From the NCBI GenBank assembly GCA_045599645.1, contig JAZRWI010000080.1, positions 15,735-79,734 of the forward strand: DNA of 64,000 nt, in the 5' to 3' direction. The stretch's first letter is position 1. Each line of letters opens with the position of its first letter. Both the position numbers and the translations under genes were made by a program. This DNA is from Candidatus Avigastranaerophilus sp. GTDB lineage: Bacteria > Muiribacteriota > Ozemobacteria > Ozemobacterales > Ozemobacteraceae. The notes beneath the pieces were generated by a model that saw nothing but the letters and a program-made list of their open reading frames with translations, was not told the DNA's origin and made no database searches. This document shows positions 4,400 to 46,365 of this stretch, one piece after another.

Positions 4400-4440
4400 T
4401 TTTACTAATTTTCATAGGAAATTGTGCCGATTAAATTGGT

Positions 4441-5268: not shown

Positions 5269-5293
5269 TTTATTTAGACGAGGTGACTAGTTT

Positions 5294-5980
5294 ATGGGTA
5301 GAGAAACAAAGCTAACAGGTCTCGAAATTCCCTTGATTCTTGCAGTTATATCACTTTTCTGCTGGAATTCCCCTATTTTATTACCCGCAAAGCTCCTGAC
5401 CGTATTCTTCCATGAACTTTCGCATGGTCTGGCAGCAATTTTAACAGGCGGTCATATTTTAAGAATCACATTAAACATGCAGCAAGGCGGTCTCTGTTAT
5501 TCTACCGGCGGTTGGTTTTTAGTAACAGCGACAGCAGGTTATCTTGGAAGTCTTTTATGGGGTTCCGGCATTCTGCTTGCTTCCTTGAAAAAAGGAATCA
5601 GCCGTGGCTTAACCGAAGGCATAGGTGCTTTGCTTCTTATCACCGCTGCACTCTGGATTAGAGATTTTCAGGCACTGGCCATTACCATAACAACAGCTAT
5701 TGCTCTTATATATATAGCCTCTAAGCTTAAAGAAGTATATTGCGATATTTTCTTAAAGTATATAAGTCTGATTTCTTGCTTCTACGTTATTTTTGATATT
5801 AAAGACGACTTGTTAGACAGAAGCATACCTGCTTCTGATGCTTATCAGATTTCTTCACGCATATTTCCAAGTTTCATGACAGGTTTTGGCAGCTACATTA
5901 TTGGTCTATTATGGATGGCAGTTGCTATATATGTATTGTATAAAGTATTTAATTATGCTCTTAACCCCAACAGAAAGTAA
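5294..5980 (+). CDS. Polytopic membrane protein with intramembrane HExxH (Peptidase_M50B-like zinc metalloprotease)
   Basis: HELSHGLAAILTGGH lies within a predicted TM helix. Size (228 aa) and topology fit the M50B-like family. Confidence 0.45.
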   Translation: MGRETKLTGLEIPLILAVISLFCWNSPILLPAKLLTVFFHELSHGLAAILTGGHILRITLNMQQGGLCYSTGGWFLVTATAGYLGSLLWGSGILLASLKKGISRGLTEGIGALLLITAALWIRDFQALAITITTAIALIYIASKLKEVYCDIFLKYISLISCFYVIFDIKDDLLDRSIPASDAYQISSRIFPSFMTGFGSYIIGLLWMAVAIYVLYKVFNYALNPNRK

Positions 5981-5999
5981 TAATGAATAGGAAGCTTAT

Positions 6000-7619: not shown

Positions 7620-7915
7620 TTATTATAGCAACAAAACCAGCCACAGAAATATCAAAGAACCCTGACGGCTGGGTTGTTTATATTTTAGAATGCTGTGATG
7701 GTTCTTTATATACTGGTATTACCAACAACCTGGACAACAGGATAAAAACCCATAACAGCGGCAAAGGTGCTAAGTTCACAAGAGCGCGACGTCCTGTGGT
7801 ATTACGTTATTTTGAAAACGTTGAAAGCAAAAGTGCTGCTCTTAAGCGGGAAATAGCTATAAAAAAGCTATCCCGCACCCAAAAACTGGAGCTTATTCAG
7901 CGACGATCCTTGTAG
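7616..7915 (+). CDS. GIY-YIG nuclease-family small protein (UPF0213/YhbQ-like)
   Basis: GWVVYILECCDGSLYTGITNNLDNRIKTHNSGKGAKFTRARRP is the GIY-YIG motif. The start overlaps the cyclase stop by 4 nt. Confidence 0.75.
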   Translation: MIIIATKPATEISKNPDGWVVYILECCDGSLYTGITNNLDNRIKTHNSGKGAKFTRARRPVVLRYFENVESKSAALKREIAIKKLSRTQKLELIQRRSL

Positions 7916-8724
7916 AAATCAGGCTCGAAATATTCATACCATTCTTCCTTCTGATTGGAAAGACCTACTCTCCAAGCTGTTAGAGGACCTAATTCAAGCT
8001 GTTCAAAATCTCTATAGGTTTCGCGCATAATATCATTAGGAAAATGCTTTTTAGCAAATTCAGCCTGAGTTTTATTGTGATCTGCTGCCAGATACAAATC
8101 CCAGGCACCAAAAATATGAAGTATTTCGTGAGCAATATTCTGCGGTGTGAAATCTTCGTATTTTCCATCTTTATACTTGGTGTATAAAATAGCCCAATCA
8201 AGGAATTTACCTTTATCTGCGCCATAATAGCATGGCTGAGAATAACCGGAACCATTTTTGTTCGCCAGGAATATCACAATAAAATTCTGGCAATCAGGAT
8301 TATCAAGCTTTGCCTTTTCTTCGTATGCATACATGTTTTTGTAGCCTAAGGCATTAAAAATCTTTATTCCAACCTGAAAATGCTCGCTATCAGAGCCTGT
8401 TCCGTCATGAATATTATCAATAATTATATCTTCATCTAAGCCTACGAAGCTGTTTTTAAACTCAATTTTATCCGCTTCATATTTATGAGCCTGCTTTTGA
8501 AGCCAATTTTCAGCCATTTCAAGATTAGGAATATACTTCTTCTTATCAGCAGCGTCCCATTTGCTTTCAGATACAAATACTGTCAGGATATGGGTTTTGC
8601 CGGTCAGGGTCTTAGCCATTCCTGTATTTGCTTCTTCATAAAAGCAAGGCTCTGAGAAGCAGATATTTGAATCAAAGGCCATAAAGCAGGCTAAGACCAA
8701 CAAAAAACAATTGATTTTTCCCAT
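7897..8724 (-). CDS. Secreted putative zinc metallopeptidase (HExxH)
   Basis: N-terminal signal peptide and an HEILHIFGAWDLY motif near the C-terminus. The family is not identifiable by eye. Confidence 0.4.
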   Translation of the reverse strand: MGKINCFLLVLACFMAFDSNICFSEPCFYEEANTGMAKTLTGKTHILTVFVSESKWDAADKKKYIPNLEMAENWLQKQAHKYEADKIEFKNSFVGLDEDIIIDNIHDGTGSDSEHFQVGIKIFNALGYKNMYAYEEKAKLDNPDCQNFIVIFLANKNGSGYSQPCYYGADKGKFLDWAILYTKYKDGKYEDFTPQNIAHEILHIFGAWDLYLAADHNKTQAEFAKKHFPNDIMRETYRDFEQLELGPLTAWRVGLSNQKEEWYEYFEPDFYKDRR

Positions 8725-8733
8725 ATATTATCT

Positions 8734-9624
8734 TTATTCACCAAGCTTAAAAATCTGGCGAAGCTTAGCTGAATTAATCATATCAGCAGCTTTTAAATCA
8801 GCCCAGTCATATTTTGTGTTAAAACCGGTTTCAAGACTTTCACGATTTTCTGGATTATATAATGCTGCTCTTACCAGACAGCTTTGGATAAGAACCTGTG
8901 ACATCTGCATTGCAGCTATGAAATTATCAGGGTCTATTTCAGTCAGCTTCACACCATTTTTATTCAAAGCTTCAGCAGGATACGTAAAGCAAGAAGCATT
9001 ATCAGCTATTTCTGAGTTAATCTTAATATTATCAAAAACAACGGTTGAATCACCCATATCAATAGTTAAGCTTTTAAATGGGAATGCAGATTTTGTATCA
9101 ATAACAGTAGTTTCCTTAGATTTCTGGCTGGTATAGCCAGTAATTTCAAGCAAACCATCTTTTTCAGTAGCAGCCATATTATCATCAGCCGGCTTGGCTA
9201 AATCAAGAAAGCTGACATTAATAGCATTTTCCTTTTCCTGTTCATTTGGTCTGTGATAGAAAACATTTGCTACAAGCTGAGCATTTTCATATATAATCTT
9301 AACAATATTAATATTGCCTGTGGCAAGCCATATCTGTTTAGACATAGCATCATAGAAAAGAGCCTTGTCATCTCTTATAACAAGAACAGGGGTTTTATCC
9401 TTATCAAAAAGATTAAAGCCAAAATGACCGCTGCTTTTATACCAGTTCTGAACTGTATAAACATCACCTTCATTTGTTATAGACAGCTGAAAATGGAAGG
9501 TTTCAATGTTTTTATCAGGTATGGAAATATTTGGAACATATTTTTCAAGAAGTTCCATTGGTGTCTGTGCATAGCAAGAGCATGCTGTAAAAATCAATAA
9601 AAATAAGGCGATAAATCTTTTCAT
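8734..9624 (-). CDS. Secreted lipoprotein, hypothetical
   Basis: I placed the start at the ATG at 9624 (MKRFIALFLLIFTACSC, lipobox FTAC, GGAGAA RBS 5 nt upstream); the ORF track extended it to 9714. There is a 9-nt gap to the downstream metallopeptidase gene. Confidence 0.45.
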   Translation of the reverse strand: MKRFIALFLLIFTACSCYAQTPMELLEKYVPNISIPDKNIETFHFQLSITNEGDVYTVQNWYKSSGHFGFNLFDKDKTPVLVIRDDKALFYDAMSKQIWLATGNINIVKIIYENAQLVANVFYHRPNEQEKENAINVSFLDLAKPADDNMAATEKDGLLEITGYTSQKSKETTVIDTKSAFPFKSLTIDMGDSTVVFDNIKINSEIADNASCFTYPAEALNKNGVKLTEIDPDNFIAAMQMSQVLIQSCLVRAALYNPENRESLETGFNTKYDWADLKAADMINSAKLRQIFKLGE

Positions 9625-9800
9625 GTTTTCTCCTAATATACAAGCGTTTGCCATACATCTATAATTCTTACAAAAGGGTCTATTTGTCAAGATTTGACTT
9701 TTATTATCCGGCAATTTATACTTAATTAATCAAGAAAAATGCGAGATTTAATAAGGCATGAAATGCTGGTATAACCTCAAGGTTCGTTGCCAGCCGTCAT

Positions 9801-10943
9801 TTGAGGAGTGGAGAATTGGCTGAAGGAAAACCATTTATTAAATGTGGCCAGCTTTTCGACCATACAGACGCTTTTGAATATACCCCTGAAACAGAGCAGC
9901 TTTTCGTTGATGCTATGAACGAAGCTTTGCGCTGGCATGCAAACCACTGTCCAGATTACAAAGCTTTTCTAGCAGAAAATGGCCTTGCTGATTTAAAACA
10001 AAAATATTCACCAGAACAGATTCCACCTCTATTAGTAAGCATATTCAAGGAATTTAAACTGGCTTCTGTGCCTGATAAGCAGGTAAAAATAGAATTAACC
10101 TCCTCAGAAACAGGTGGACGCAAAAGTGCAATAATACTGGATGCACGCTCATATAAAAGGATACTGAAAATAGTAGAAAATATTTTTGGTTCCCTTGGTC
10201 TGGTGGACCACAAGCAGAAGGTTAATTATCTTTGCTTCACATATGACCCCAAATACGCTGTCAATGTAGGAACAGCTTTTTCCTACAAGCTTTTGACAGA
10301 TTTAACAGCTCATAGAAGTGTTTATTATGCTATTAGATTCGATAAAAAGACAGGCGAATTCAATTTCGACGCAGAAGCAGCAGCAAAAAAACTGATTGAT
10401 TTCAGCACCCACCCTGAACCAGTCAGAATACTTGGTTTTCCTGCTTATCTATGGCAGGTCTGTGACTGGTTGGAAAAGAACAACATGGATTTGAAGCTTG
10501 GCAAGAAATCCTTCATCATCACTGGTGGCGGTTGGAAAATCCATAAAGACCTTGAAGTTACCAAGGATATTTTCAAAGATCGTGTAAATAAGATTCTTGG
10601 TATCCCACATGAAAATGTCAGAGACCTGTTCGGCATGGTTGAGCACGGCATTCCTTATGTTGACTGTGAATGTGGAAGGTTGCATGTTCCGATTTATGCC
10701 AGAGCAATGTGCGTAGACCCGGAAACCTTGTTCCAGGTAGAAGATGGCGAAGAGGGTCTTCTCTATCTTATGACGCCCTATATTTCAAGCTATCCGTCAA
10801 TATCACTGCTAACTACAGATAAAGCAGTCATAGAAGATAACTGCCCATGTGGCAGACCTGGCAAAACCTTCAGAATTATCGGAAGAGCCGGAATGGCAAA
10901 GCATAAAGGCTGCGCAATCAATGCACTGGAGCTTCTAAAATGA
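9801..10943 (+). CDS. LuxE-like acyl-protein synthetase (ANL/PaaK-like adenylating enzyme)
   Basis: ~380 aa with a P-loop-like TSSETGGRKS, GGGWK, and the C-terminal CPCGRPGKTFRIIGRAG motif typical of PaaK/LuxE. The exact start is uncertain. Confidence 0.55.
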   Translation: MRSGELAEGKPFIKCGQLFDHTDAFEYTPETEQLFVDAMNEALRWHANHCPDYKAFLAENGLADLKQKYSPEQIPPLLVSIFKEFKLASVPDKQVKIELTSSETGGRKSAIILDARSYKRILKIVENIFGSLGLVDHKQKVNYLCFTYDPKYAVNVGTAFSYKLLTDLTAHRSVYYAIRFDKKTGEFNFDAEAAAKKLIDFSTHPEPVRILGFPAYLWQVCDWLEKNNMDLKLGKKSFIITGGGWKIHKDLEVTKDIFKDRVNKILGIPHENVRDLFGMVEHGIPYVDCECGRLHVPIYARAMCVDPETLFQVEDGEEGLLYLMTPYISSYPSISLLTTDKAVIEDNCPCGRPGKTFRIIGRAGMAKHKGCAINALELLK

Positions 10944-12793
10944 TCAATAACAAGATTTTTGTTTTCGGACAGGAATTAGCATCAGATTGGCTTTGTGCAG
11001 AAACAGCAAACGAGCTGCTTGACGAAGCCTATGAAAAGTCTAAGCTTGCAGCTGAACCGGACATAGAATGCATATTAGAAATTTTTGATAATGTATCAAA
11101 AGCCTGGTCTGACCCAGAGTATAAGCTACGTAAAAAAGCAGTAGAAATATTGCCACAGCTCACTTCATTCAGTGCAGAAATGATTGAGGAAGGTTTAAAT
11201 GTTGTCAGCTCAATATGTTCAAGAAAGAGTCTTGAAAAGCGTTTATACAGTGAAATAGGCAGTCTGGAAGCCTTAAATGAAGGCGAAGAACGACCACATA
11301 ACAATTATAGATTAAAAGCACAACCAAGAGGAGTAGTTCTTCATATTAGCACTGGTAATGTGTTTGTAGACACTGTTGATAGTCTGATTTCCGGAATCAT
11401 AACAAAGAATGCCAACATTCTTAAAATGTCAGGAACGAACCCTGTTTTCCCTGTTCTGTTCCTGGAAAGCATAAAAGAGTTTGACCCAGCAGGTATCATA
11501 TGGGCAAATCAGGCAATTGTAGCCTGGAATGGCGGTAATAGAGCCATAGAAGATGTTCTTTTTAACGGAAAGCTGACACTTGTGTTCTGGGGCGAACGCA
11601 AAGCCTTAGATTCATTAAAGCCACGTTTAGGCCGACAAGTTAAGCTTATAGAAAACGAACCAAGGTATTCCTTTGCTGTAATAGAAGGCAAATGTCTGAA
11701 ACCCAATGCTCCAGAAAATGTTGTCAGAGGTCTGGCCTTAGATGTTTGCCGATGGAATCAGCAAGCCTGCTCATCTCCTCATGTGGTTTATGTCATAGAC
11801 AAGGATTTAAAAACATCACACCAGCTGATAGAAGCTCTGTTCGATGAAATGATTCAAGTCAGCGAGGAACTGCCTCACGGTAATTTAAGCTTTGATGAAA
11901 AGGTAGAAATCCGTAAAGTCCGCGAAATAGCACGCATGATGCAGGTTCGCAGTGAAGGAAGACTTGTTTGCCCGGAAGAATTTGATTTCACACTTGTTCT
12001 GGAATATGACCCTGCTTTCAAGATTTCATGCCTGAACAGAACATTATTCATAAAGCGTGTAACAAATATTGAAGACTTAATAGAGCAGCTTTCACCTATA
12101 TCTGATTATCTTCAGACAGCTGGTTTATGTTGTTCAACAGATTTTACAAATATCTTTGAGCATGAATTATTCAATCTTGGCGTTAAAAGAATCACAGATA
12201 TTGGTGGAATGACCGAAAGCCATGAAGGAGCCCCGCGTGAAGGTTATTTCATTTTACGTGACCTGGTTGAATGGGTTGCCGTTGAATATAAGAACGATTA
12301 TCAATCAAGAATAGAACGACTTCTTAAGAACCTCTGTTCTTCACCATATTACTGCCAGTTAATTGAAGAAGCAGGCGGCTGTAGTTATAACAGCTTTCTC
12401 AAGCTTCCTTTCCTTGATAAAGACAGTTTTTACAGAATTTCTCCACCAGAAGCCAACAACATTCCGAGCAGGCCTATGGCAGATACCTGTATCGATACAG
12501 GACTCGTAGGCTGGCAATGCGCCCACATTCCTGGAACTATACATCATGTTCCAGAGGAGTATTGCTATGTCGAAATTATTTCTACAAAAGACCAATCAAT
12601 TATTGAAGATGATACTCCGGGGGAAATAGTTGTAACCAACTTAGACCATAAGCTTCAGCCAATTATCCGCTATAGAACCGGTGACCTAGGCCGTTGGGTA
12701 GAAATAGAAAAATGCCCTTGCGGTTTTACAGGTAAATCCTTTGAATTGCTTGGCCGCTGTGACGACCTGATTGTAGAAAGAACAATCAAATAA
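10940..12793 (+). CDS. LuxC-like acyl-CoA reductase (ALDH-like fold) fused to a short PaaK-like C-terminal module
   Basis: The N-terminal ~440 aa are ALDH/LuxC-like with candidate catalytic Cys in WNQQACSSPH. The C-terminal ~175 aa carry LPFLDKDSFYRI...IRYRTGDLG...CPCGFTGKSFELLGRCDDL but no P-loop. It overlaps the upstream gene by 4 nt. Confidence 0.5.
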   Translation: MINNKIFVFGQELASDWLCAETANELLDEAYEKSKLAAEPDIECILEIFDNVSKAWSDPEYKLRKKAVEILPQLTSFSAEMIEEGLNVVSSICSRKSLEKRLYSEIGSLEALNEGEERPHNNYRLKAQPRGVVLHISTGNVFVDTVDSLISGIITKNANILKMSGTNPVFPVLFLESIKEFDPAGIIWANQAIVAWNGGNRAIEDVLFNGKLTLVFWGERKALDSLKPRLGRQVKLIENEPRYSFAVIEGKCLKPNAPENVVRGLALDVCRWNQQACSSPHVVYVIDKDLKTSHQLIEALFDEMIQVSEELPHGNLSFDEKVEIRKVREIARMMQVRSEGRLVCPEEFDFTLVLEYDPAFKISCLNRTLFIKRVTNIEDLIEQLSPISDYLQTAGLCCSTDFTNIFEHELFNLGVKRITDIGGMTESHEGAPREGYFILRDLVEWVAVEYKNDYQSRIERLLKNLCSSPYYCQLIEEAGGCSYNSFLKLPFLDKDSFYRISPPEANNIPSRPMADTCIDTGLVGWQCAHIPGTIHHVPEEYCYVEIISTKDQSIIEDDTPGEIVVTNLDHKLQPIIRYRTGDLGRWVEIEKCPCGFTGKSFELLGRCDDLIVERTIK

Positions 12794-30376: not shown

Positions 30377-32347
30377 TTATTCAGCACCATAAGCGCCAAT
30401 CTGGCCTTTATTTGAAGCTACATCAAGAAGTGGTGACCCGCTCTGCAGATGATAATCATATACATTCCCAATTTTTCCTTCGAACATTGGATCGACATTA
30501 TGTATCGGTGCACCGCTCTGAGTGCAATTGACTGTAGCTGTCTTAAAACCAAAAATATTATTATATGGGAAAGCAATACCGGAAGAATACATGTCTTCAA
30601 TACCATTACCGCTTCCGCTACTAGCCATATTCACAATAATGTTATTCTGGACTTTTGCGTCCATAGCTCCTTCAAGCTGAATTCCGTTAAGGGCATCAAT
30701 AGTCAGAAACTGTGCATCACAATTATCACCGCTTATTTCAAGACCCTTGGCAAGAGAATTGATAACACCGTTTCTTATTCTTGTATCAGCCTTGTCAAAA
30801 GCCTGAACTCCAGCCTTTTTGCAATTTCTAACATCAAAATAATTAAGTGTCAGACCTGTGTTGTTATTAAGAATAATGCCTACATCACAGCCTTCAGCCT
30901 TTACATCTGAAATATTACAATAATATGTATTTTCTACATTTATACCTGTTTCACAATCTTCTGTATAAATTCCAGAAATAGCTGTTCCACTAGCTGTAAT
31001 CAATGCAAAACCGGTTTTACAATATCTGGCTTTTACATTATCAATTTTCAGGTTACTGCTATAAAGCTTAAGCCCTGTATTTGCACCTGATATAACAACA
31101 TTACTGAACAAGCTTTCGTTTTCACCTATTCCAGCCATGAATCTTATGCCATCCCAGTCATTGTTCTGAGGTGTTGAGGACTGTGAAAGGAATTGAATTG
31201 GTTCTGCTTCGGTGCCACGGGCAATAATAACTCCTTCAACTACGAATTCACAGAGACTGTTTTTAAAAGTGTTATCCTTATTGCCATCAGTAAAGAATCT
31301 GATGCTAGTGCCAGGTTCAATAGTCAAAGTATATCTTGAAGGAATCGTAATATCACCACCCAAACTAATCGGGCTCCATTCCTTTTTCCAGACAATATCT
31401 TCATGGATTGTTCCTGTAGGAACAAAGCTTCTTACAGCAGGCAATTCAGAGAGATTACCTTCATAATCTACTGCATAAAGATTATAGGTATAATAGCGGC
31501 CTGGAGAAACCAGATCGTCAACAACAGACAACTGGCTGCTGAACATGTCGTTTTCATCTCTTAAAAGAGCGAGCTTTCCACCGTTTTCACTGCGATAAAT
31601 TCTAAATCCCCTGATTGGATCCGCACCGGCATATTGCCAAGAGAGCTGAGGACCATATATCGTCTGAGTAATATTGAAATCAATAGGAGTATCTGGCGCC
31701 CCTTCGATATCATACATGCTTACAGTCTTAAAGCTTGACTGTTCTGTAGTAAAGGTGCGGCCGTCAGATGTAGTTCCTGTTACAGAAAAATAATAGGTTG
31801 AATCAGGATAAAGATTATTAAGTGTAATTCTATGCTGAGTAGCTTTTGCATCTGGTGTTGTAGTGCTTGGCATATTGCTTAATTCGCGATATGTAACCGA
31901 AACACTCATTTCTTCATGACAATTAATATCAAGAACAACACTTGTTTTTTCCTTTACTGCAACATTAGCCTTTATCATCTTTTCCATGCTATCAACAACG
32001 ATTGTAACGTCATTAATAACCTGACCATACCCTAATTCTATTGTTGCAGAGCCAAGATAAAATCCGTCACGTTCGACTGTTAAATTATGATGTCCTTCAT
32101 CTAATGAAGTAAACATGAAACGGCCCATTTCATCTGTTTCAGCTTTGTAAAGAGAACGATTTGATGTAATTATTGCTCCGGAGACAGCTAGTTTATTAGA
32201 ATCAATAACAATGCCAGATACGCTGCCACGCTGAGTATCAAGAACATGATCCTCGTCTCTTACACAGCCAACAGTGAAAATAATAAATAAGGAAACAACG
32301 AATATGAGTATGTTTCTTATCCAAAGCTTAGTATTTTCGTTTCTCAT
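30377..32347 (-). CDS. Surface lipoprotein paralog 1: CarboxypepD_reg-like + FN3-like + right-handed parallel beta-helix repeats
   Basis: Lipobox FTVGC. N-terminal SGIVIDSNKLAVSGAIITSN (carboxypeptidase-regulatory-like beta-sandwich), then multiple PbH1-type repeats. Conserved C-terminal DP.F...Y.Y.L...SP motif shared with the two paralogs. Confidence 0.55.
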   Translation of the reverse strand: MRNENTKLWIRNILIFVVSLFIIFTVGCVRDEDHVLDTQRGSVSGIVIDSNKLAVSGAIITSNRSLYKAETDEMGRFMFTSLDEGHHNLTVERDGFYLGSATIELGYGQVINDVTIVVDSMEKMIKANVAVKEKTSVVLDINCHEEMSVSVTYRELSNMPSTTTPDAKATQHRITLNNLYPDSTYYFSVTGTTSDGRTFTTEQSSFKTVSMYDIEGAPDTPIDFNITQTIYGPQLSWQYAGADPIRGFRIYRSENGGKLALLRDENDMFSSQLSVVDDLVSPGRYYTYNLYAVDYEGNLSELPAVRSFVPTGTIHEDIVWKKEWSPISLGGDITIPSRYTLTIEPGTSIRFFTDGNKDNTFKNSLCEFVVEGVIIARGTEAEPIQFLSQSSTPQNNDWDGIRFMAGIGENESLFSNVVISGANTGLKLYSSNLKIDNVKARYCKTGFALITASGTAISGIYTEDCETGINVENTYYCNISDVKAEGCDVGIILNNNTGLTLNYFDVRNCKKAGVQAFDKADTRIRNGVINSLAKGLEISGDNCDAQFLTIDALNGIQLEGAMDAKVQNNIIVNMASSGSGNGIEDMYSSGIAFPYNNIFGFKTATVNCTQSGAPIHNVDPMFEGKIGNVYDYHLQSGSPLLDVASNKGQIGAYGAE

Positions 32348-34323
32348 TTCCTTGTTACCCCATATCTACCAAGTTCAAGTCCGAATTCATCGTTTATACG
32401 GCAGAGAGAAGATTCACTAAGATTGTAATCATATGGACTTCCACCGACAAAAGCTGGATCCAGAGCCACTGATAATGTTCCAACATCGCAGCCATAAACA
32501 GCATTCGCAAAGCCATAAATATCGTTATAGCAGTAGGTTGGATACTGGCTTTCATTCATATATGCAATACCAGTTGCACCGGCATTGGAGGTATTAGTGA
32601 AAATATTGTTAGTCAGGTAGAGAGAACCAGTAGCAATAATCAAGGCTCTATCAGCATCAACAGTAACATGGTCTATTATATTGCCACCATCATTCCTGAG
32701 GATATTAGTGTAATTGATACCTTCTGGACTGACTACGAGGGTATTTGTAATAATGCTATTTGCAAAGGTTCCTCTTATACCCGTATTGTATGCATAAATA
32801 TCTGTATTACGGATGAATGTCTGGTCATAAATGCTATCTGTGAAGTTTTCAAGACCAACAGAGGTATTTGTTATTCTTGAATTCTTCAAAGTCATATGGA
32901 AACATTTATTGATTGAAACTGCTACTGATGAAATATCATCAAAATAACAATTTTCAAGTTCAACAGCCTGAGTTACCCCTTCAAAGCGTAAGCCGCCAAC
33001 GGAATGCTTAACAGTAATGCCACTTACAGCAACATTTACAGATTTAACATTAATAGTATAGCCACTGCAGCCAAAAATTTCTGCATTCCTGATAGCTGAA
33101 ATACCTGTCTGAGAAGAAAGAATTGTAATTCCAGCCCAGTGTTCACGTTTACCTGAACCATCAAGAGGACTGAAAATAACCGGTTCAGCTTCTGTGCCAT
33201 TAACAGTGAGTGAGCCATGAACCAGTATTTCTACTCTATCTGTATCAAAGCCAGATTTGAAGGAATCATTTTCGCTGATCTGGAATTCTGTTCCAGCTTC
33301 AACAGTCATATTGACACCCATGGGAACAATAAGGTCTGCTGTTATCTTTACAGGAGAATCCAGTTTACTTATGTTAATATCGTTCTTAACTACGCCAGGA
33401 ACGAAAACTAAGTCAGAGACCATCTTATCAGATTCAGCACCTACATTGTTTACAGCAGTAACTGCATAACGGCAGAAAACACCTGTTTCTGCTTCCACAT
33501 CGCTGTAACTGCAACCCTTAGTAATAACTGTTCCGTTGCAACGAACCCAGGCACCGCCCTTTTTCTGGCGATAAACATTATAGCCTGCAACAGAAAGCTT
33601 TGTTTCAGGAGCAGTCCAGGTCAAAGGCACTACACCAAGCTCAGTCATATCTGCTATCTTTATAGAAGATGGCTTATATGGCGCTTCGCCACTGGCAGTT
33701 CTAAAAGTATAATCGAAGGAAGAATAACTATTAGAAAATTCATCAAGATATTGAATCTTGAAATGATATACAGTTTCTGGGGTTAGACCGGTTAAGAGGT
33801 AATAATGTATTTTATTTGGGCGTTCTTCTGCAACATAGCTACCATAGCTCATATCTTTGCCATAATGGATGTTACAGCAGATATCCTTGTAGGTCTGCCA
33901 ATTAATTTCAACAGTAGTTGATGAAACCTGGCCAATAACAACTTTAGAAATTCTGTTACTGGCGCTCAAGCGGTCTAATCGGATAAAATCAACTTTTGTT
34001 TCCTGATCAGATTTTACTTCAGACTGATACTGTTCAAGCGCAAAATCGCTGTGCTGAATAATAATATTATTAAGGCCAGCAGGGAGTTCTGGCAGTCTGA
34101 AAGAACCGTCCAGACCGGAATAAACAATCTGGTCATCTGCAAACAGAGAAAAACATTTTGCATTAATTACTGCGTCGCCTTTTTCATCGATTAATCTGCT
34201 GCTAAAGCTGCCAGTATTGGACTGACGGCTTCCACAGCCTGTAAGCAGAGCAGTTAATAGCAAAACTGCCAGCAAAAAAGCTGGCACTATTTTCCTTCTG
34301 TCAATTTGGAACATCTTCTGCAC
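32344..34323 (-). CDS. Surface lipoprotein paralog 2 (same architecture)
   Basis: Lipobox LLTGC. 4-nt overlap with paralog 1. Beta-helix repeats and C-terminal DPAFVGGSPYDYNLSESS. Confidence 0.55.
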   Translation of the reverse strand: MQKMFQIDRRKIVPAFLLAVLLLTALLTGCGSRQSNTGSFSSRLIDEKGDAVINAKCFSLFADDQIVYSGLDGSFRLPELPAGLNNIIIQHSDFALEQYQSEVKSDQETKVDFIRLDRLSASNRISKVVIGQVSSTTVEINWQTYKDICCNIHYGKDMSYGSYVAEERPNKIHYYLLTGLTPETVYHFKIQYLDEFSNSYSSFDYTFRTASGEAPYKPSSIKIADMTELGVVPLTWTAPETKLSVAGYNVYRQKKGGAWVRCNGTVITKGCSYSDVEAETGVFCRYAVTAVNNVGAESDKMVSDLVFVPGVVKNDINISKLDSPVKITADLIVPMGVNMTVEAGTEFQISENDSFKSGFDTDRVEILVHGSLTVNGTEAEPVIFSPLDGSGKREHWAGITILSSQTGISAIRNAEIFGCSGYTINVKSVNVAVSGITVKHSVGGLRFEGVTQAVELENCYFDDISSVAVSINKCFHMTLKNSRITNTSVGLENFTDSIYDQTFIRNTDIYAYNTGIRGTFANSIITNTLVVSPEGINYTNILRNDGGNIIDHVTVDADRALIIATGSLYLTNNIFTNTSNAGATGIAYMNESQYPTYCYNDIYGFANAVYGCDVGTLSVALDPAFVGGSPYDYNLSESSLCRINDEFGLELGRYGVTRK

Positions 34324-36310
34324 CTATGTCTTCACCAGAATCATAACCAGCCTTTTTCAAAGTGCTGCCTGATTTTGGAGTGTAGCTGAAATTAGAATCT
34401 GTTAAAGCATCTATAAATGGGTCACCGCCAGTTAAAGCCGGCCCTGAAGATGAACTAAATGCCAGGTCACCACTTACAGCTAATGCATTTCCAGAGGAAT
34501 TGCCATACTTCATAGCTGGAACAGTCTGATTCCAAACACCATTATTCTGAATAGAGATATCAGTAGATGAAGTATTATTGCTTACATAAAGCAGACCCAT
34601 GCTATTGCGGTTTTTATCAGCCAACATGAGATTGCTTCTGATAAATGTCTTTGCAGTATCTTTTACCTGAATACAAAGAGGTGCCTGAATAGTATTTCTG
34701 CGGATTTCATCAAAACCGTTGCAAACGATACCTATTCCGCCAGTTCCCCACCCTATTGTATTGCGGTAAACCATAGAAGCAGAATTGTTAGCATTAACTT
34801 CAATAGCGGTAATTACATTAGCCTTGATTTTATTACCAGTAATCTGGTTCAGTTCATTATTCATAGCTCTAATGGCATATGAACAACCACTGAAGGTATT
34901 ATCTGAAATTTTAATAACAGCATTGCTATCACTTATATCAATACCAGTAATACAAGAAACAAAGCTATTGTTATCTATTTCAATATCATTTTCTGATTTA
35001 TTTGCATATATAGCAGCATCAGAGCAGTTGCTAAACCAGCATCCACTGATTTTTGGCAAACCATTTTCACCAACAACACCCTTTTCTGCAAATTGTATCT
35101 TTAAGCCTTCAAGAGATGATGCAGACAGGTCTGCAGATTCTTTGAAGGTAATACCTTCCCAGTCACCATTCTCTGGAACTGCTTCTGCCGATGTAATACA
35201 GACTGGCTGACTTTCAGTTCCCTGAACAAGCAAAGTACCAAGAACAGTTATACCAACCTTGTCTATTCCAACTCCGTCTGCATCCCACTTATCGATACCT
35301 GCAGCACGGATTTCTGTGCCTTTTGCAATAATAAGGCTTGCACCCTGAGCAATGATTAAATCCCCAGTGAGTTCATAAGGTGATCCCTGAGGATTCCAAA
35401 CAACGTTAGTATTTATTGTTCCAGGCATAACCATTGATACAACGGCAGAAGGTGAACTTTCATCGCCACTGCCTGCAATTCTGGTTACTCTATAAAAATA
35501 TTTTTCACCAACCTTAATACCCATATCAACATATGAAGCCTGCTGAACAATACCTGTGTTTATTTTTTCAAATACACCATCAATGCTGGAAGAACGATAA
35601 ACATTAAAGCCTGCAAAATCAGCACTCGCATCTGCATTCCAAGCAAGAGAAAAAGCTGAATTTCCATAATTTTTTGAAATGGTCAGGCCTGTTGGAGGTT
35701 CACTTCTAGCTGCTACAGAGGTTGTAAAGGTTTTAACTTCTGAAGTAAGAGCTCTGTTAAACTTATCTGTTCCTAGACACTGGAATACATATGTAGTAGA
35801 TGGAACAAGACCAGTAAGCTCAAAAATGTGAGTATATTTCTTAGCTGAACTGCTTGGCAATACCTTATCCATCTGGGAATTACTGCCATAAGCAATCTTG
35901 GTATCAGCTTCAAATTTTGTTTTAAAGCTGATGGTAGCCTTTGTTGAAGTAACTTCAGAGACAACTATGTCATATATTTCGCCTGCTGACGGAAGCTGGA
36001 ATGTGATATTTTCGACAATCATACCACTCTGAACTTCGTAGCTCTTTGATTGACTCTGATAATTTTCCTTGCTGGCTACAAATTCATATATCTGTGGTTC
36101 TAAGTCTTCAATATTCCACTTACCATAGTAGTCAGTAACAGCACTACGGCCGCCAACTGATACAACAGCTCCACTTAAAGCCTTAGCGTTTGTATCTAAT
36201 ACGATACCGCTGGCCCCACCCGAAGCAGCATCGTTGGAACCCATGCAGCCAATCAGGCTCATGACGGAAAATACAAGGATAAAAATTGTCATCAATCTAA
36301 AGTTTTTCAT
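34301..36310 (-). CDS. Surface lipoprotein paralog 3 (same architecture)
   Basis: Lipobox SLIGC, SGIVLDTNAKALSGAVVSVGG, beta-helix repeats. 23-nt overlap with paralog 2. Confidence 0.55.
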   Translation of the reverse strand: MKNFRLMTIFILVFSVMSLIGCMGSNDAASGGASGIVLDTNAKALSGAVVSVGGRSAVTDYYGKWNIEDLEPQIYEFVASKENYQSQSKSYEVQSGMIVENITFQLPSAGEIYDIVVSEVTSTKATISFKTKFEADTKIAYGSNSQMDKVLPSSSAKKYTHIFELTGLVPSTTYVFQCLGTDKFNRALTSEVKTFTTSVAARSEPPTGLTISKNYGNSAFSLAWNADASADFAGFNVYRSSSIDGVFEKINTGIVQQASYVDMGIKVGEKYFYRVTRIAGSGDESSPSAVVSMVMPGTINTNVVWNPQGSPYELTGDLIIAQGASLIIAKGTEIRAAGIDKWDADGVGIDKVGITVLGTLLVQGTESQPVCITSAEAVPENGDWEGITFKESADLSASSLEGLKIQFAEKGVVGENGLPKISGCWFSNCSDAAIYANKSENDIEIDNNSFVSCITGIDISDSNAVIKISDNTFSGCSYAIRAMNNELNQITGNKIKANVITAIEVNANNSASMVYRNTIGWGTGGIGIVCNGFDEIRRNTIQAPLCIQVKDTAKTFIRSNLMLADKNRNSMGLLYVSNNTSSTDISIQNNGVWNQTVPAMKYGNSSGNALAVSGDLAFSSSSGPALTGGDPFIDALTDSNFSYTPKSGSTLKKAGYDSGEDIGAEDVPN

Positions 36311-36466: not shown

Positions 36467-36715
36467 TTATGCTACTTCTTCAAGATTAATTGTAGAATCT
36501 TCGCACTGGCTGGCAAGATCAATCTTACCGTTGCTCATGTCAAAGAGTCTCTGCTGAATTCTGGCCTGAACGATTTCAAGACCGTTTGGCAGGTCGAGCA
36601 GGTTGATGTCTTTTCCTAAGACTTCGCCGTAGTTTTCTTTAATATGCTGAATCATACGAATTCTGAATTCAGCATCTGTCTTGGCCTGATACAATGGAGT
36701 ATTAGGTAGAATCAC
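36467..36715 (-). CDS. Small hypothetical protein (82 aa)
   Basis: ORF only. A hairpin plus U-run (36391-36440) follows on the minus strand. Confidence 0.3.
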   Translation of the reverse strand: MILPNTPLYQAKTDAEFRIRMIQHIKENYGEVLGKDINLLDLPNGLEIVQARIQQRLFDMSNGKIDLASQCEDSTINLEEVA

Positions 36716-36892
36716 GATTTACCCCCTGGAATGTGATTTAGATACAGTTCACACTACTTATCGGCAAGACTGAATATTCCCTTAATGCTTTTTTTATATC
36801 TCAGAAAAATAGCAACTTTATAACTTGCCCAAAAGAAGATATCCCAAAACTAGAAATCTATAAAAATCCCGATGTACAGTAGATTCCTAAAA

Positions 36893-37067
36893 CCTCCCTT
36901 TTTAAGGGAGGGTAGGGAGGGTTTTGATTTTAGAAAGAACTTGTTTTGAATGCATAAAATCGAGTTTTCAGACAGCCTCTTTAAGGGAGGGTAGGGAGGG
37001 TTTTGATTTTAGAAAGAACTTGTTTTGAATGCATAAAATAGAGTATTCAGACAGCCTCCAAAGAGGC
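36893..37067. repeat. Two tandem ~80-bp direct repeats, each with a perfect hairpin (CCTCCCTT-TTT-AAGGGAGG in copy 1) followed by a G-quadruplex motif GGGAGGGTAGGGAGGG and ...GGTTTTGATTTTAGAAAGAACTT...; a GCCTC-CAAA-GAGGC hairpin at the 3' edge
   Basis: Read directly. Copy 1 is 36893-36975 and copy 2 is 36976-37054 (~95% identical). G4 motifs at 36906-36921 and 36985-37000. Confidence 0.85.
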
Positions 37068-37117
37068 TTAAGCCACTTATAATGTAGGTTTACTAAAATT
37101 TACATTTAAAATATTGC

Positions 37118-37720
37118 ATGCATAATTTGCATAGAGTAAAATCCCGCATCATGCAAAATTTGTATCAGAAAATACAGAAGATAGAAAGTCTTCAAGCCGC
37201 TGCTGACCGCGCAACAGCAGCTTTCAAAAAACGTTACAACGTTGATTGTTTACAACACTGCGCAGAATGTTGCAAATACAATGATATCAATGCCTCACCC
37301 TTGGAATTCCTTCCAATGGCATGGCATCTTTATAAAACAGGACAATTAGAGGATTTCTTCGAGAAAATATCAAAAACTGATTCCAAACAATGTATTTTTT
37401 CTGTTTTTAAAGACGATAGATGGGGTTGCACCTGCTATCCTAGCCGTGGCATGATATGCAGATTGTTTGGTTTTGCCTGCACCAAGAACAAGCTTGGGAA
37501 ACCAGCATTCGCAGCCTGTCACACTCTCAAGCACAGCTTCCCAGATAAAATAAATGCTATTTGCCAAAAAGTAACTATCAGCAAAAGAGTACCAGTTATA
37601 GCTGATTTTTATCAAAAGCTTTCCATGCTTGATCTAAGCTTAGGTGAAGAACTCATACCCATCAACCAAGCCATAAAAGAAGCTTGTGAAATCGTCTATA
37701 TGCACACCGCTTATAAATAA
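37118..37720 (+). CDS. YkgJ/UPF0153-family putative Fe/Zn-binding protein (CxxCxxCC)
   Basis: CLQHCAECCKYND motif plus a second Cys cluster (CTCYPSRGMICRLFGFAC). The start may be the internal ATG (MQNLYQ). Confidence 0.5.
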   Translation: MHNLHRVKSRIMQNLYQKIQKIESLQAAADRATAAFKKRYNVDCLQHCAECCKYNDINASPLEFLPMAWHLYKTGQLEDFFEKISKTDSKQCIFSVFKDDRWGCTCYPSRGMICRLFGFACTKNKLGKPAFAACHTLKHSFPDKINAICQKVTISKRVPVIADFYQKLSMLDLSLGEELIPINQAIKEACEIVYMHTAYK

Positions 37721-37733
37721 AGCGAGTCCACAG

Positions 37734-38483
37734 TCATGAATTAATATCAATGCCTGTTCTGAGGCCGACGAAGCTGTCCATCTGGCTGAGAGCCATGGCA
37801 ATGCCTGGCATAAAGCAATCTCTGTTGATTGTATCGTGTCTTATAGTGAGAGTCTGGCCCAAGTCACCGAAAATTACTTCCTGATGAGCAACCAAACCAG
37901 GTAATCTTACTGAGTGCATAGGAATTACATCGGGATTATTTTCTTCATCAAGCTTTCCAATGGCTTCAAGCATGCCTTTTCTAGTCTTGATTGCAGTTCC
38001 AGAAGGCTTATCAACCTTCTGGTCATGATGTAGTTCAATAATTTCAGCTTTCTTCATAAACTTAGCTGCTATCTTGGCAAAATTCATCATTAAAATAGCG
38101 CCAATGGCAAAGTTTGGAACAATCATAATAGCTGTTTTATTCTTCCGGGCTAATTCATCTAGCATTTTCATATTTTCAGAAGAAATGCCGGTAGTTCCAA
38201 TAAGAATAGGAGTCTTGGAATTAAGGCAGGTTATGGCATTTCCAACAACTGCAGAAGGAGCTGTAAAATCGATTACAACGTCTACCTTTGCGCTTGCAAG
38301 TCCTTCCTGCATTGTTCCGCAGACAATAATATCGCTATCGATGCCTGCAACCTTGTTCAAAGGAGCATCGCAGTGCTTTGGATCAACACCTGCTACCAAT
38401 TTATAATCAGGAAGATTGCTAATATAATTGCAGACAGTCTTCCCCATCTTTCCGCCACAACCAGAAACTAATACGTTCTTCAT
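37734..38483 (-). CDS. dapB: 4-hydroxy-tetrahydrodipicolinate reductase
   Basis: N-terminal Rossmann VLVSGCGGKMGK and a DapB-like C-terminal domain (HHDQKVDKPSGTA; E-L/I-H-H..K-D-APSGTA). Stop overlaps the dut start. Confidence 0.85.
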   Translation of the reverse strand: MKNVLVSGCGGKMGKTVCNYISNLPDYKLVAGVDPKHCDAPLNKVAGIDSDIIVCGTMQEGLASAKVDVVIDFTAPSAVVGNAITCLNSKTPILIGTTGISSENMKMLDELARKNKTAIMIVPNFAIGAILMMNFAKIAAKFMKKAEIIELHHDQKVDKPSGTAIKTRKGMLEAIGKLDEENNPDVIPMHSVRLPGLVAHQEVIFGDLGQTLTIRHDTINRDCFMPGIAMALSQMDSFVGLRTGIDINS

Positions 38484-38911
38484 TATTTAACTCCTGTTGA
38501 ACCGAAACCGCCAGCTCCTCTGGCTGTATCGTCTAATACTTCAACCTGTTCAAAAGCCACCTGAGTTACATGAGCAAACACCATCTGTGCAATACGCATA
38601 CCTGGTTCAATAACAAAATCATTCTTACCGTGATTAATTAAAATCACACAGATTTCGCCGCGATAATCACTATCAATAGTGCCTGGAGCATTAAGAACTG
38701 TCACCCCATGCTTTGCAGCAAGACCGGAACGAGGTCTGATCTGTGCTTCCAAACCCATAGGCATGGCTATCCTGATTCCGGTCGGAACCTTTTCAAACTC
38801 ACCTGCTTTAATAGTAACAGCCTGTGATGCGCACAAATCATAGCCTGCAGAACCTGCAGTTGCCATTTCTGGCATCTTAGAGTCAGTAATCTGAATAAAA
38901 ACCTTTTCCAA
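38483..38911 (-). CDS. dut: dUTP diphosphatase
   Basis: dUTPase motifs [24 protein letters not shown]. Apparent TTG start with an AAGGAG RBS located inside the first repeat unit. Confidence 0.85.
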
Positions 38912-38920
38912 TGTTTTCTC

Positions 38921-39244
38921 CTTTATAGCGGGTAGGATAAATCCCCCCTGCCCCCTTTAACAAAGGGGGTTTTAGAAAGTTTCTACTTTATAGCGGGTAG
39001 GATAAATCCCCCCTGCCCCCCTTTAACAAAGGGGGTTTTAGAAAGTTTCTCCTTTATAGCGGGTAGGATAAATCCCCCCTGCCCCCCTTTAACAAAGGGG
39101 GTTTTAGAAAGTTTCTACTTTATAGCGGGTAGGATAAATCCCCCCTCCCCCCCTTTAACAAAGGGGGTTTTAGAAAGTTCCTACTTTATAGCGGGTAGGA
39201 TAAATCCCCCCTGCCCCCCTTTAACAAAGGGGGTTTTAGAAAGT
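38921..39244. repeat. Five tandem 65-66-bp direct repeats (CTTTATAGCGGGTAGGATAAATCCCCCCTGCCCCC(C)TTTAACAAAGGGGGTTTTAGAAAGTTTCTMC), each with a perfect hairpin CCCCCTTT-AAC-AAAGGGGG followed by TTTT
   Basis: Read directly. Units begin at 38921, 38986, 39052, 39118 and 39184, with no spacers, so this is not CRISPR. It shares a GG(G)TTTTAGAAAG core and C-run/hairpin/G-run architecture with the 36.9-kb repeat. Confidence 0.9.
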
Positions 39245-39290
39245 GATTAATTTCTATTAGACAAAGATTATATCATTTTATAATAAAATA

Positions 39291-39330
39291 AGGCACCCTT
39301 CTTTTAGAGAAAGGTGCCTTAGCGTTTTTT
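39291..39330. terminator. Hairpin (GGCACCCTT...AAAGGTGCC) with flanking T/A runs downstream of the aminotransferase gene
   Basis: Imperfect ~9-bp stem with TTTTTT on the plus side and a U-rich tract on the minus side. Confidence 0.45.
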
Positions 39331-46122: not shown

Positions 46123-46160
46123 TTATACCAAGCTAGTATAACGTCTGTTCCAATATTTAA

Positions 46161-46181
46161 TTCATAATTCATAATTCATAA
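46161..46181. repeat. (TTCATAA)x3 microsatellite
   Basis: Read directly. Confidence 0.8.
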
Positions 46182-46225
46182 TGCATTAGGTTATAGCACT
46201 AACACCCGCCAAGCAGCACCAACCT

Positions 46226-46365
46226 CCTAAGACCTAAGACCTAAGACCTAAGACCTAAGACCTAAGACCTAAGACCTAAGACCTAAGACCTAATACCTAA
46301 GACCTAAGACCTAATACCTAAGACCTAAGACCTAAGACCTAATACCTAATACCTAAGACCTAGTA
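46226..46365. repeat. Heptanucleotide tandem repeat CCTAAGA x~19 (with CCTAATA/CCTAGTA variants), ~65 bp upstream of the 46429 operon
   Basis: Read directly: ~135 bp of perfect or near-perfect 7-bp units. Confidence 0.9.

Follow-up and report, generated by a model that had tools for sequence, protein, structure and literature searches.

Gene Context and Layout of the Repeat Arrays

The window analysed here is a stretch of DNA of 64 kb, and two intergenic regions within it carry tandem repeats (Table 1). Array 1 had been described in an earlier sequence-only reading as lying between two minus-strand genes. However, a minus-strand open reading frame of 82 aa (36467-36715) was identified on one side and a plus-strand gene with a CxxCxxCC domain (37118/37151-37720) on the other. 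Array 2 is located upstream of dut and dapB, which are organized as an operon on the minus strand, and its first unit overlaps the ribosome-binding site of dut. On the far side of array 2, TGATATAAT is a candidate extended -10 promoter for dut-dapB, as judged from the sequence, and in L036, L037 and L038 the same position reads TGTTATAAT. If this candidate is used, array 2 becomes part of the transcript as its 5' leader. At its distal end, the dut leader region is bounded by the terminator of the upstream aminotransferase gene.

Table 1: Features of the two repeat arrays and of their surroundings in the 64-kb window.
Feature	Position	Strand	Description and source
228-nt segment containing array 1	36838-37065	.	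Pairwise alignment with L005; orthologous spacer of L036; blastn coordinates
Array 1	36897-37058	+	Tandem duplication, 2.1 x 79 bp; Tandem Repeats Finder, repeat search, sequence
Intact class II motif, array 1	36893-36923	+	8/8 triplets; covariance model 44.9 bits; G-quadruplex pattern
Pyrimidine (Y) arm of intact motif	36893-36900	+	CCTCCCTT, then loop TTT
Purine (R) arm of intact motif	36904-36911	+	AAGGGAGG, then loop GTAG
Mirror (reverse-Hoogsteen) arm of intact motif	36916-36923	+	GGAGGGTT
Degenerate second copy, array 1	36976-37002	+	Covariance model 12.2 bits; Y arm cut to CCTCTTT
dut-dapB operon	37734-38911	-	Downstream of array 2; open reading frames and Pfam
dapB	37734-38483	-	Pfam DapB_N and DapB_C
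dut	38483-38911	-	TTG start 38911; SD GGAG 38918-38921; Pfam dUTPase 1.6e-38
Array 2	38915-39244	-	5.0 x 66 bp tandem units; Tandem Repeats Finder, unit-by-unit listing, alignment
Array 2 unit 1 motif, dut-proximal	38940-38969	-	CCCCCTTT-GTT-AAAGGGGG-CAG-GGGGGATT; covariance model 51.2 bits
Array 2 unit 2 motif	39005-39035	-	CCCCCTTT-GTT-AAAGGGGG-GCAG-GGGGGATT; triplet scan, covariance model
Array 2 unit 3 motif	39071-39101	-	Triplet scan, covariance model
Array 2 unit 4 motif	39137-39167	-	Second loop GGAG; triplet scan, covariance model
Array 2 unit 5 motif, distal	39203-39233	-	Triplet scan, covariance model
Candidate extended -10 promoter for dut-dapB	39267-39275	-	TGATATAAT; upstream of array 2; read from sequence
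Intrinsic terminator of the upstream aminotransferase gene	39289-39321	-	14-bp stem and T-run; terminator scan, repeat search
31-nt cores as oligonucleotides			d(CCCCCTTTGTTAAAGGGGGGCAGGGGGGATT), d(CCTCCCTTTTTAAGGGAGGGTAGGGAGGGTT)

Both arrays were confirmed by Tandem Repeats Finder, array 1 with a period of 79 and 2.1 copies (96% matches) and array 2 with a period of 66 and 5.0 copies (97% matches). The unit junction in array 1 lies at a CCTC microhomology. In array 2, each unit consists of one triplex motif, as described below, and about 35 nt of the dut leader, including the SD-like sequence AAAG(G/T)AGAAAC; the units follow each other at a spacing of 66 nt and are told apart by a few SNPs and a single change in G-run length (G5/G6). 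Since the units of both arrays are joined head-to-tail and unique spacers are absent, the arrays are not CRISPR, as had been proposed from the start. An invertible segment or composite transposon bounded by the two arrays was likewise rejected, because the synteny of dut-dapB is conserved and array 1 is absent from relatives.

The two arrays had been thought to share one architecture in the same orientation. However, the best inter-array alignment pairs 36884-36924 of the plus strand with the minus strand of array 2 (41 nt ungapped, 78% identity) and the same-strand alignment is inferior, so that the relative orientation had to be reversed. The perfect hairpins reported previously were found as CCTCCCTT-TTT-AAGGGAGG (36893-36911) and, in five copies, as CCCCCTTT-AAC-AAAGGGGG, but the hairpin in the second unit of array 1 is imperfect, because its pyrimidine arm is truncated. 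For GGTTTTAGAAAG, which had been taken as the conserved core, five exact copies were identified in array 2 and two copies of the one-mismatch form GATTTTAGAAAG in array 1 (0.6 expected). It is a same-strand flank match of only 10-11 nt and no feature of the family, because copies found by patterns not forcing GGTTTTAGAAAG lack it.

Architecture of the Repeat Core

The core of each array is tripartite: the pyrimidine arm is joined by the purine arm that pairs with it in Watson-Crick fashion, and by a further purine run, which mirrors that purine arm with G opposite G and A or T opposite A. This mirroring of the hairpin purine arm by the second G-run is the organizing principle of the unit, and by definition it makes the unit a class II intrastrand triplex motif. 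Class II purine-motif intrastrand triplexes have been named PIT, BoxC-like or TM (Holder et al. 2015, Nucleic Acids Res 43:10126, PMC4666352), and potential intrastrand triplex (PIT) elements are credited there to a first description by Hoyne et al. 2000.

A sequence-agnostic scan of both strands of the whole window for perfect 8-triplet motifs of class I or II returned exactly six, namely unit 1 of array 1 and the five units of array 2, compared to 0 in 100 block shuffles. The architecture is thereby unique to the two arrays within the window. All six copies show the domain order Y-loop-R-loop-RH on one strand (36893-36923 on the plus strand, five copies in 38940-39233 on the minus strand) and a Watson-Crick stem with 8/8 pairs, and the first loop is 3 nt and the second 3-4 nt long. 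These values lie inside the limits of the class, which are a stem of 6-15 nt with at most one mismatch and, by the ITxF criteria, loops of 1-6 nt; a weak copy in L016 needs a second loop of 9 nt and lies outside them. In the degenerate second copy of array 1, the purine arm (36983-36990) and the mirror arm (36995-37002) are both intact. When the window and 127 kb of DNA from relatives were searched with a covariance model built on the core, additional copies were not detected.

In the 21 members of the family, a sample biased to hairpins, pairing was seen in 97% of cells, with 3 compensated pairs; the hairpin covariation is partly circular, because a perfect hairpin was required in the searches that yielded the members of the window lineage and some others. 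In all copies of the window lineage, including those in L005 and L036, the mirror rule gives 8/8 triplets with second loops of 3-5 nt, whereas a direct-repeat rule scores 5-7/8, except for array 1, which does not discriminate between the two since both rules give 8/8. The copy in L005 and L036 does discriminate, because its arm AAGGAGGG is accompanied by the adjacent run GGGAGGTT, which is the mirror, whereas a direct copy would be GGAGGG.

The same comparison was made on hairpin-anchored samples from IMG/VR, which were picked without regard to the third arm. Here, a perfect mirror arm was identified at 29 and 7 strand-sites, compared to 0 for a perfect direct arm, and A or T was found opposite the interrupting A. 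For hairpins of the type C5TT-N3-AAG5, the extra run was located on the correct side in 36 of 104 distinct sequences and on the wrong side in none of the 104, and two control patterns gave 0 hits versus 16. The hairpin-anchored comparison of mirror and direct arms is a simple test which does not presuppose the triplex rule; extended to whole databases, it could address whether the ability to form a triplex is itself under selection.

Relation to Known Triplex Motifs

Holder et al. 2015 described the class as intergenic, with inverted pairs, and as abundant in Enterobacteria and Cyanobacteria; the single strand was shown by CD and NMR to form a stable triplex, and intergenic variability between E. 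coli strains was significantly raised (PMC4666352). The literature also records that polymerases are blocked in vitro and that such motifs are unstable in E. coli. The in vitro folding of the single strand has been demonstrated for the E. coli motif only; its duplex DNA gave no triplex signal, and in vivo DMS footprinting found none (PMC4666352).

The cores in the window resemble the PIT/TM elements in having the same order of Y arm, loop, R arm, loop and antiparallel mirror arm, the triplets G·G-C and A/T·A-T, and stems of 8 nt with loops of 3-4 nt within the published limits. They are likewise intergenic with occasional inverted pairs and with no linked transposase found in the window, and they lie in intergenic DNA that varies strongly between close relatives; the cyanobacterial abundance of the class is matched by near-identical cores found there. 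They differ in their host, an uncultured Riflebacteria-like lineage of about 39% G+C, in the amplification of motif segments into head-to-tail arrays of 5 x 66 bp and 2 x 79 bp, and in the position of one array inside a 5' leader, where an SD-like sequence is duplicated with it. The changes catalogued by Holder et al. 2015 are mostly deletions or mutations of motifs, and tandem amplification is absent from that catalogue. With BoxC/TM_ECO (5'-CCCTCNCCC N3-6 GGGNGAGGG N3 GGGNGAGGG), the cores share the structural class, a length of about 31-37 nt and the inverted pairs. However, they belong to another sequence family, with stems of 8 nt ending in T/A compared to the C/G-rich stems of 9 nt in TM_ECO, and the pattern CCCTCNCCC N3-6 GGGNGAGGG N3 GGGNGAGGG has 0 matches in the window. 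Searches of the literature with the core, both in its DNA form and translated into peptides, revealed nothing relevant.

Variation among Relatives and Distribution

A segment of 228 nt containing array 1 is absent from L005 and L036, in which the flanks align at about 91-96% identity; the orthologous spacer of L036 holds no element, and for the part of the segment outside the motifs no relatives were found by blastn. A comparison of copy number at the dut leader, as had been recommended, revealed five tandem units in the window versus a different set in L036, a relative at about 91% nucleotide identity, with two tandem copies, one inverted copy and one further copy. The motif of unit 1 of array 2 has an orthologous copy in both L005 and L036. 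An extra copy was identified in L036 at a third locus, the spacer downstream of an esterase gene, where it shares 35 identical nt with a copy from the dut leader of L036 but is flanked by unrelated sequence. By this qualitative comparison, all three loci known in the lineage differ between genomes at about 91% identity, in line with the instability between strains that has been reported for such motifs in E. coli.

The identical 35-nt copy at two unlinked loci in one relative is evidence of dispersal. Inverted motif pairs occur in relatives, and near-identical cores were identified in Cyanobacteria, a Desulfobacterota MAG, metagenomes and viral contigs. The proposal of a dispersed REP/BIME-like family therefore holds in the broad sense of structured elements that are neither CRISPR nor IS, but finds no support in the sense of REPs linked to a RAYT. 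Four related contigs end within the motifs, and short-read assemblies are broken by motifs of this kind.

Alternative Explanations

The copies upstream of dut might be a selected cis-regulatory leader, with 5' stem-loops that stabilise or attenuate the dut-dapB mRNA and a copy number that tunes expression. Array 2 indeed lies in sense orientation between the conserved candidate extended -10 and the SD sequence of dut, and at least one to three sense copies are kept upstream of dut in the window, L005 and L036; in the more distant relative L017/L019, unrelated hairpin repeats of 27 nt occupy the dut spacer. A consensus scan flagged weak terminator-like alternative pairings in the sense direction, in which the inverted copy of L036/L005 is a hairpin followed by UUUUAG. 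However, this explanation is unlikely, as array 1 is located outside any leader, with the promoter of the CxxCxxCC-domain gene downstream of it and conserved in relatives without the array, and elements of this kind are missing upstream of dut in relatives at 72-76% identity. RNA also gives the mirror arm no role, since it does not adopt the purine-motif triplex (PMC4666352), and E. coli members were without promoter or terminator activity in the work of Hoyne and Maher, as reported in PMC4666352. An attenuator model, in which the pyrimidine arm pairs with the second G-run, showed covariation not beyond that of shuffles. The folds of single units have z-scores of just -0.7 to -2.0; with the whole array included the range is -0.7 to -3.0, which is uninformative for G/C runs of low complexity. 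In Rfam, no family reached the gathering threshold in the whole window and nothing came near it (best local hits 23 bits versus thresholds of 54-65), and PyrG-leader and PyrR, considered from a local E-value scan, were far below threshold. The persistence of sense copies in the dut leader of all three close relatives sampled could still reflect selection on the RNA and not neutrality.

It appears quite unlikely that the copies are selfish elements of the REP/REPIN or MITE type, moved in trans, for example by a RAYT, with an incidental triplex symmetry. The identical copies at unlinked loci, the presence/absence polymorphism at three loci, the near-identical cores in distant hosts and the folding of inverted pairs into long REPIN-like hairpins would suit such elements, and the copies resemble REP/BIME and REPIN in being palindromic, extragenic, dispersed sequences of about 35 nt, sometimes in inverted doublets and variable between strains. 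REPs number tens to hundreds of dispersed extragenic copies per genome, and in the 64 kb covered here two motif loci were found, with no further covariance-model matches. However, no transposase or Y1 (RAYT) domain was identified in the 37 open reading frames of the window scanned with Pfam, whereas REPs have a cognate RAYT. The polymorphic segments are 214-228 nt long and consist otherwise of unrelated sequence, and they do not look like neat insertions of 35 nt bordered by target duplications. REPs lack a third, mirrored arm, and the A-or-T mirror rule is no property of theirs; they are lineage-specific, whereas this core is near-identical across phyla. For the E. coli motif, no association with mobile elements was found (PMC4666352). 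Support is lacking for readings as REP/RAYT elements or as riboswitches.

The suggestion that the arrays are G-quadruplex regulatory repeats, or intrinsic terminators or insulators, is very improbable. In array 1, the purine arm, loop and mirror arm can also be read as the canonical short-loop G-quadruplex motif GGGAGGGTAGGGAGGG, which was found twice (0 expected) and is unique to array 1 in the 64 kb, and Xanthomonas and Nostoc are known to carry G-rich quadruplex repeats between their genes (PMC4692102). In array 2, the G5-6/G6 runs noted before are present, but each unit has only two of them and the four-tract motif is absent; moreover, both the pyrimidine arm and the mirrored A/T positions are left unexplained by a G-quadruplex. 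The G-quadruplex motif is probably incidental. On the plus strand, the hairpins of array 2 are followed by TTTT, but no gene is transcribed into either array on the strand with this T-run. Read in the sense direction, a G-run comes after the hairpin, and the terminator scan gave nothing beyond weak alternative stems rich in G-U. Just 6-8 of 104 comparable hairpins are flanked by T or A runs; such runs are entirely absent, as T-runs, from the high-GC copies, and PIT elements had no terminator activity according to Hoyne and Maher, as cited in PMC4666352.

Intrastrand Triplex Motifs and the Probable Origin of the Arrays

The array cores probably represent the known class of potential intrastrand triplex motifs, and the arrays themselves secondary local tandem duplications. 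As such, the arrays are a new example within a described class and no new kind of element. The motif strand presents the pyrimidine arm, a loop of 3 nt, the complementary purine arm, a loop of 3-4 nt and the mirror third arm. When replication, repair or transcription leaves this strand transiently single, a hairpin can form from the first two arms, and the third arm can then lie antiparallel in its major groove, held by triplets of the types G·G-C, A·A-T and T·A-T. Many bacteria carry motifs of this class as dispersed intergenic repeats. Segments of 79 bp and 66 bp, each by chance holding one motif, were probably duplicated locally, most likely when replication stalled at the folded motif and slipped or switched template, with hypervariable intergenic DNA as the outcome. 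We infer that triplex-induced slippage produced both arrays; the link between motif and duplication is correlative and comes from two loci in the window.

Array 1, between two divergent promoters, is probably neutral. In the 5' leader of dut-dapB, the RNA copies of array 2 would form only the hairpin part of the motif, and these hairpins may incidentally affect mRNA stability or read-through. The A-or-T mirror covariation, which was seen in many unrelated genomes and viral contigs, might even be evidence of a triplex that is formed and selected in vivo, with the dut-leader array as a contingency locus; there is an outside chance that this holds. If so, triplex-driven slippage would alter the number of leader hairpins and decoy SD sequences and in this way tune the expression of dut-dapB.

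By this assignment, two puzzling arrays are placed in a described but little-known class of non-B-DNA repeats, and the class is extended to an uncultured Riflebacteria-like lineage. The arrays are a natural example in which a triplex motif is central to tandem amplification and to gain and loss between close relatives, and their variability agrees with the proposal that triplex motifs destabilise intergenic DNA.

Certain heptamer repeats (the quadruplex-forming GGGNATC type in Xanthomonas and Nostoc, Rehm et al. 2015, PMC4692102; TAACTGA, MacGregor 2015, PMC4679880) are comparable to these motifs in being intergenic, G-rich or short, of variable copy number and oddly distributed across phyla. 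However, they are simple tandem repeats without hairpin or mirror arm, and a four-tract motif is found here only in array 1. Heptamer arrays were also identified adjoining triplex motifs in the window lineage (L016, L036) and in the viral contig L027.

Two arrays in inverted orientation

Two tandem arrays were found where the sequence-only reading had placed them, and its perfect hairpins, G-tracts and TTTTAGAAAG string were recovered; within the 64 kb these are confined to the arrays, with a chance expectation near zero. The observation holds up and is far from what chance would give. The arrays had been described as lying in the same orientation, but the shared segment aligns best when inverted, 36884-36924 (+), TTCCTAAAACCTCCCTTTTTAAGGGAGGGTAGGGAGGGTTT, matching each array 2 unit on its minus strand, TTTCTAAAACCCCCTTTGTTAAAGGGGGGCAGGGGGGATTT, in an ungapped 41-nt alignment of 78% identity. 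Array 1 is bordered by a minus-strand 82-aa ORF on one side and a plus-strand gene for a CxxCxxCC-domain protein on the other, and not, as had been stated, by two minus-strand genes. Its unit junction is a CCTC microhomology, and its second unit has partly lost the pyrimidine arm. On the minus strand throughout, array 2 separates the terminator of an aminotransferase gene from the start of dut-dapB, and the dut Shine-Dalgarno sequence lies inside its first unit.

Features of the window discussed in the text
Feature	Position	Strand	Details
Array 1	36897-37058	+	period 79, 2.1 copies, 96% matches
Array 2	38915-39244	-	period 66, 5.0 copies, 97% matches
Candidate extended -10 element, conserved, upstream of the dut motifs	39267-39275		TGATATAAT
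Segment missing from L005 and L036	36838-37065		228 nt
82-aa ORF	36467-36715	-	no Pfam match
CxxCxxCC-domain ORF	37118-37720	+	start probably ATG at 37151
Promoter-like TTTACA-16-CATAAT	37099-37126
Site without NUDIX hydrolase gene	37720-37734
Two adjacent, overlapping lgt paralogues	871-1656; 1653-2441	+	prolipoprotein diacylglyceryl transferase
Three tandem ORFs	30377-36310	-	~660 aa each
Short tandem repeats	46226-46362; 46158-46186; 31-108		CCTAAGA x19.6; TAATTCA x4; GAAGTGAG x9.8

The third arm mirrors the purine arm

The core was searched with degenerate patterns, and near-identical copies were identified in Spirulina genomes, a Desulfatirhabdium MAG, metagenome contigs (34-59% G+C) and IMG/VR contigs (56-65% G+C). 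Some copies from unrelated sources fall within long ORFs. In 19 of 22 copies, an A/T dinucleotide comes directly after the second G-run, although it was required by no search pattern. Control patterns in which a C-run or a GC-alternating run replaced the extra run gave 0 matches, compared to 16. Among 104 distinct C5TT-N3-AAG5 hairpins sampled regardless of their flanks, an extra same-sense run was present on the correct side in 36 and on the wrong side in none. Both results indicated that the extra run is specific.

Whether this run is a mirror image or a direct copy was settled by hairpins with asymmetrically interrupted arms, which served as the discriminating test. For CCCTCCTT-N3-AAGGAGGG hairpins, the neighbouring run GGGG[A/T]GGT mirrors the purine arm instead of copying it directly, and CCTCCCTT-N3-AAGGGAGG hairpins follow the identical rule. 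With G scored opposite G, and A or T opposite A, perfect third arms (8/8) were obtained at 29 and 7 strand-sites under the mirror rule and at none under the direct rule. The copies of the window's lineage score 8/8 under the mirror rule, among them the discriminating inverted copy of L005 and L036, contigs from relatives (arm AAGGAGGG, third arm GGGAGGTT). An antiparallel purine-motif triple helix has this same base-triplet code. Run over the whole window for perfect 8-triplet motifs of class I or II, a sequence-agnostic scan returned exactly six matches, which are the intact copies of both arrays; the same scan on 100 shuffles found none. The sequence-only reading was right in broadly proposing a family of structured repeats, but not in the architecture, relative orientation and functions that it gave them.

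Motif copies were also observed inside ORFs elsewhere. The viral contig L033 (IMG/VR UViG 3300032160_001195, 60% G+C) carries at least 11 C7TT-CGC-AAG7-CA-G7 triplex motifs within 8 kb (4062-11351), three of them exactly 198 nt apart in a 347-aa ORF, each in frame as PPFARGGQGGSG. On cyanobacteria-like contigs, the core lies in sense orientation within long ORFs (L013 4370-4402; L012 1161-1195; L002 4344-4470) encoding ...PLIKGGRGD... or similar, which looks like in-frame carriage of the motif.

Relation to known triplex motifs

Intrastrand triplex motifs have been catalogued in 5246 prokaryotic genomes and plasmids, with class II (Y-R-reverse-Hoogsteen) being the commonest class (Holder et al. 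2015, PMC4666352). Compared with scrambled genomes, G/C-rich motifs showed strong enrichment, above all in Enterobacteria and in Cyanobacteria such as Microcystis, Anabaena and Nostoc. The E. coli motif, designated BoxC, PIT or TM_ECO, is strictly intergenic without strand or gene-class bias, and BoxC occurs in five inverted pairs and lacks an association with mobile elements (PMC4666352). As an isolated single strand it forms a very stable triplex by CD and NMR; the duplex contains none, and none was detected by in vivo DMS footprinting (PMC4666352). In 56 strains, the surrounding intergenic DNA is markedly more variable than control spacers or random hairpins, and earlier work showed that PIT elements block DNA polymerase in vitro and have no promoter or terminator activity (both in PMC4666352).

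The window elements agree with class II motifs in every sequence-level feature, but do not belong to the E. coli sequence family. The architecture is already described, and they are further members of the class; tandem amplification and the mirror covariation test are a modest addition.

Variability among relatives

Among named proteins, those closest to DapB and the aminotransferase come from Candidatus Riflebacteria and Ozemobacteraceae MAGs (55-69% identity), and metagenomic proteins match at up to 98%; placement in a Riflebacteria-like lineage is therefore tentative. The region is covered by two contigs from relatives at ~91% nucleotide identity, L005 and L036. Relatives at ~72-76% are represented by L007, L008 and L015-L019.

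A 228-nt segment containing array 1 is missing from L005 and L036, where its flanks align almost perfectly, including the promoter-like sequence upstream of the CxxCxxCC gene. The dut leader of L036 contains two units in the window's 66-nt register, then a diverged inverted copy and a proximal copy; in L005, the inverted and proximal copies are visible before the contig ends, and contigs L037 and L038 terminate within the first or second copy. At a third locus, the spacer downstream of an esterase gene, L036 carries an additional copy within a ~214-nt insertion relative to the window; over its 35 nt this copy is identical to an L036 dut-leader copy, with unrelated flanks. No such element was found upstream of dut in more distant relatives, and L016 has a single weak copy amid heptamer repeats. 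The dispersed unit therefore comprises ~31-35 nt, the arrays arose secondarily by local duplication, and each of the three loci is unstable.

We interpret the arrays as by-products of how the motif behaves as DNA. The motif would fold transiently on the single-stranded template and stall replication, and slippage or template switching at short homologies could then duplicate or delete it with its neighbourhood. Architecture, uniqueness in the window and variability were observed directly; folding and polymerase blockage would carry over by analogy with the E. coli motif, and the step from folding to duplication or deletion is one that we infer.

At the dut locus, the candidate extended -10 element upstream of the motifs is conserved (TGTTATAAT in L036-L038), and the motifs would therefore be part of a transcribed leader. 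RNA does not support purine-motif triplexes (PMC4666352); only the hairpins could form there, and they might influence dut-dapB expression. The main alternative is a dedicated regulatory role, which explains neither array 1 nor the mirror arm, nor why slightly more distant relatives lack the elements. REP/RAYT-type mobility and the G-quadruplex and terminator functions proposed in the sequence-only reading are weaker.

Neighbouring genes and other repeats

In the ~91% relatives, a NUDIX hydrolase gene lies between dapB and the CxxCxxCC gene (L005 1282-1845; L036 8668-9222), and is absent from the window. More distant relatives have neither gene, the 82-aa ORF directly following dapB. Because the presence of these genes differs, the spacer adjoining array 1 is a gene-content hot spot. 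In every relative the 82-aa ORF comes after dapB, and no stretch of the region is better conserved (77-80% nucleotide identity, compared to 67-76% for neighbouring genes); it probably encodes a small conserved protein. The later start of the CxxCxxCC ORF gives 189 aa, matching the L005 and L036 gene calls, and the promoter-like sequence overlaps the start of the longer ORF.

In L017 (9344-9525) and L019 (1591-1732), from a ~72% relative, the aminotransferase-dut spacer contains unrelated 27-nt tandem hairpin repeats, GGTCGCC-AAA-GGCGACC followed by GACTTCATTAG, with a ~40-nt indel between the two contigs. The accumulation of structured repeats in this spacer extends beyond a single lineage.

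One scanned ~660-aa ORF contains beta-helix, fn3 and CarboxypepD_reg domains, and the L005 counterparts are similar by contig annotation. The lineage's intergenic spacers are full of 7-9-nt tandem repeats, also in L016 (AGAATTA x9, AGAACTG/TAACTGA x6; 3106-3171, 3404-3446 and others), which resemble cyanobacterial STRR repeats and cross-phylum TAACTGA repeats (PMC4679880). Such arrays adjoin triplex motifs in L016, L036 (120-240) and the viral contig L027.
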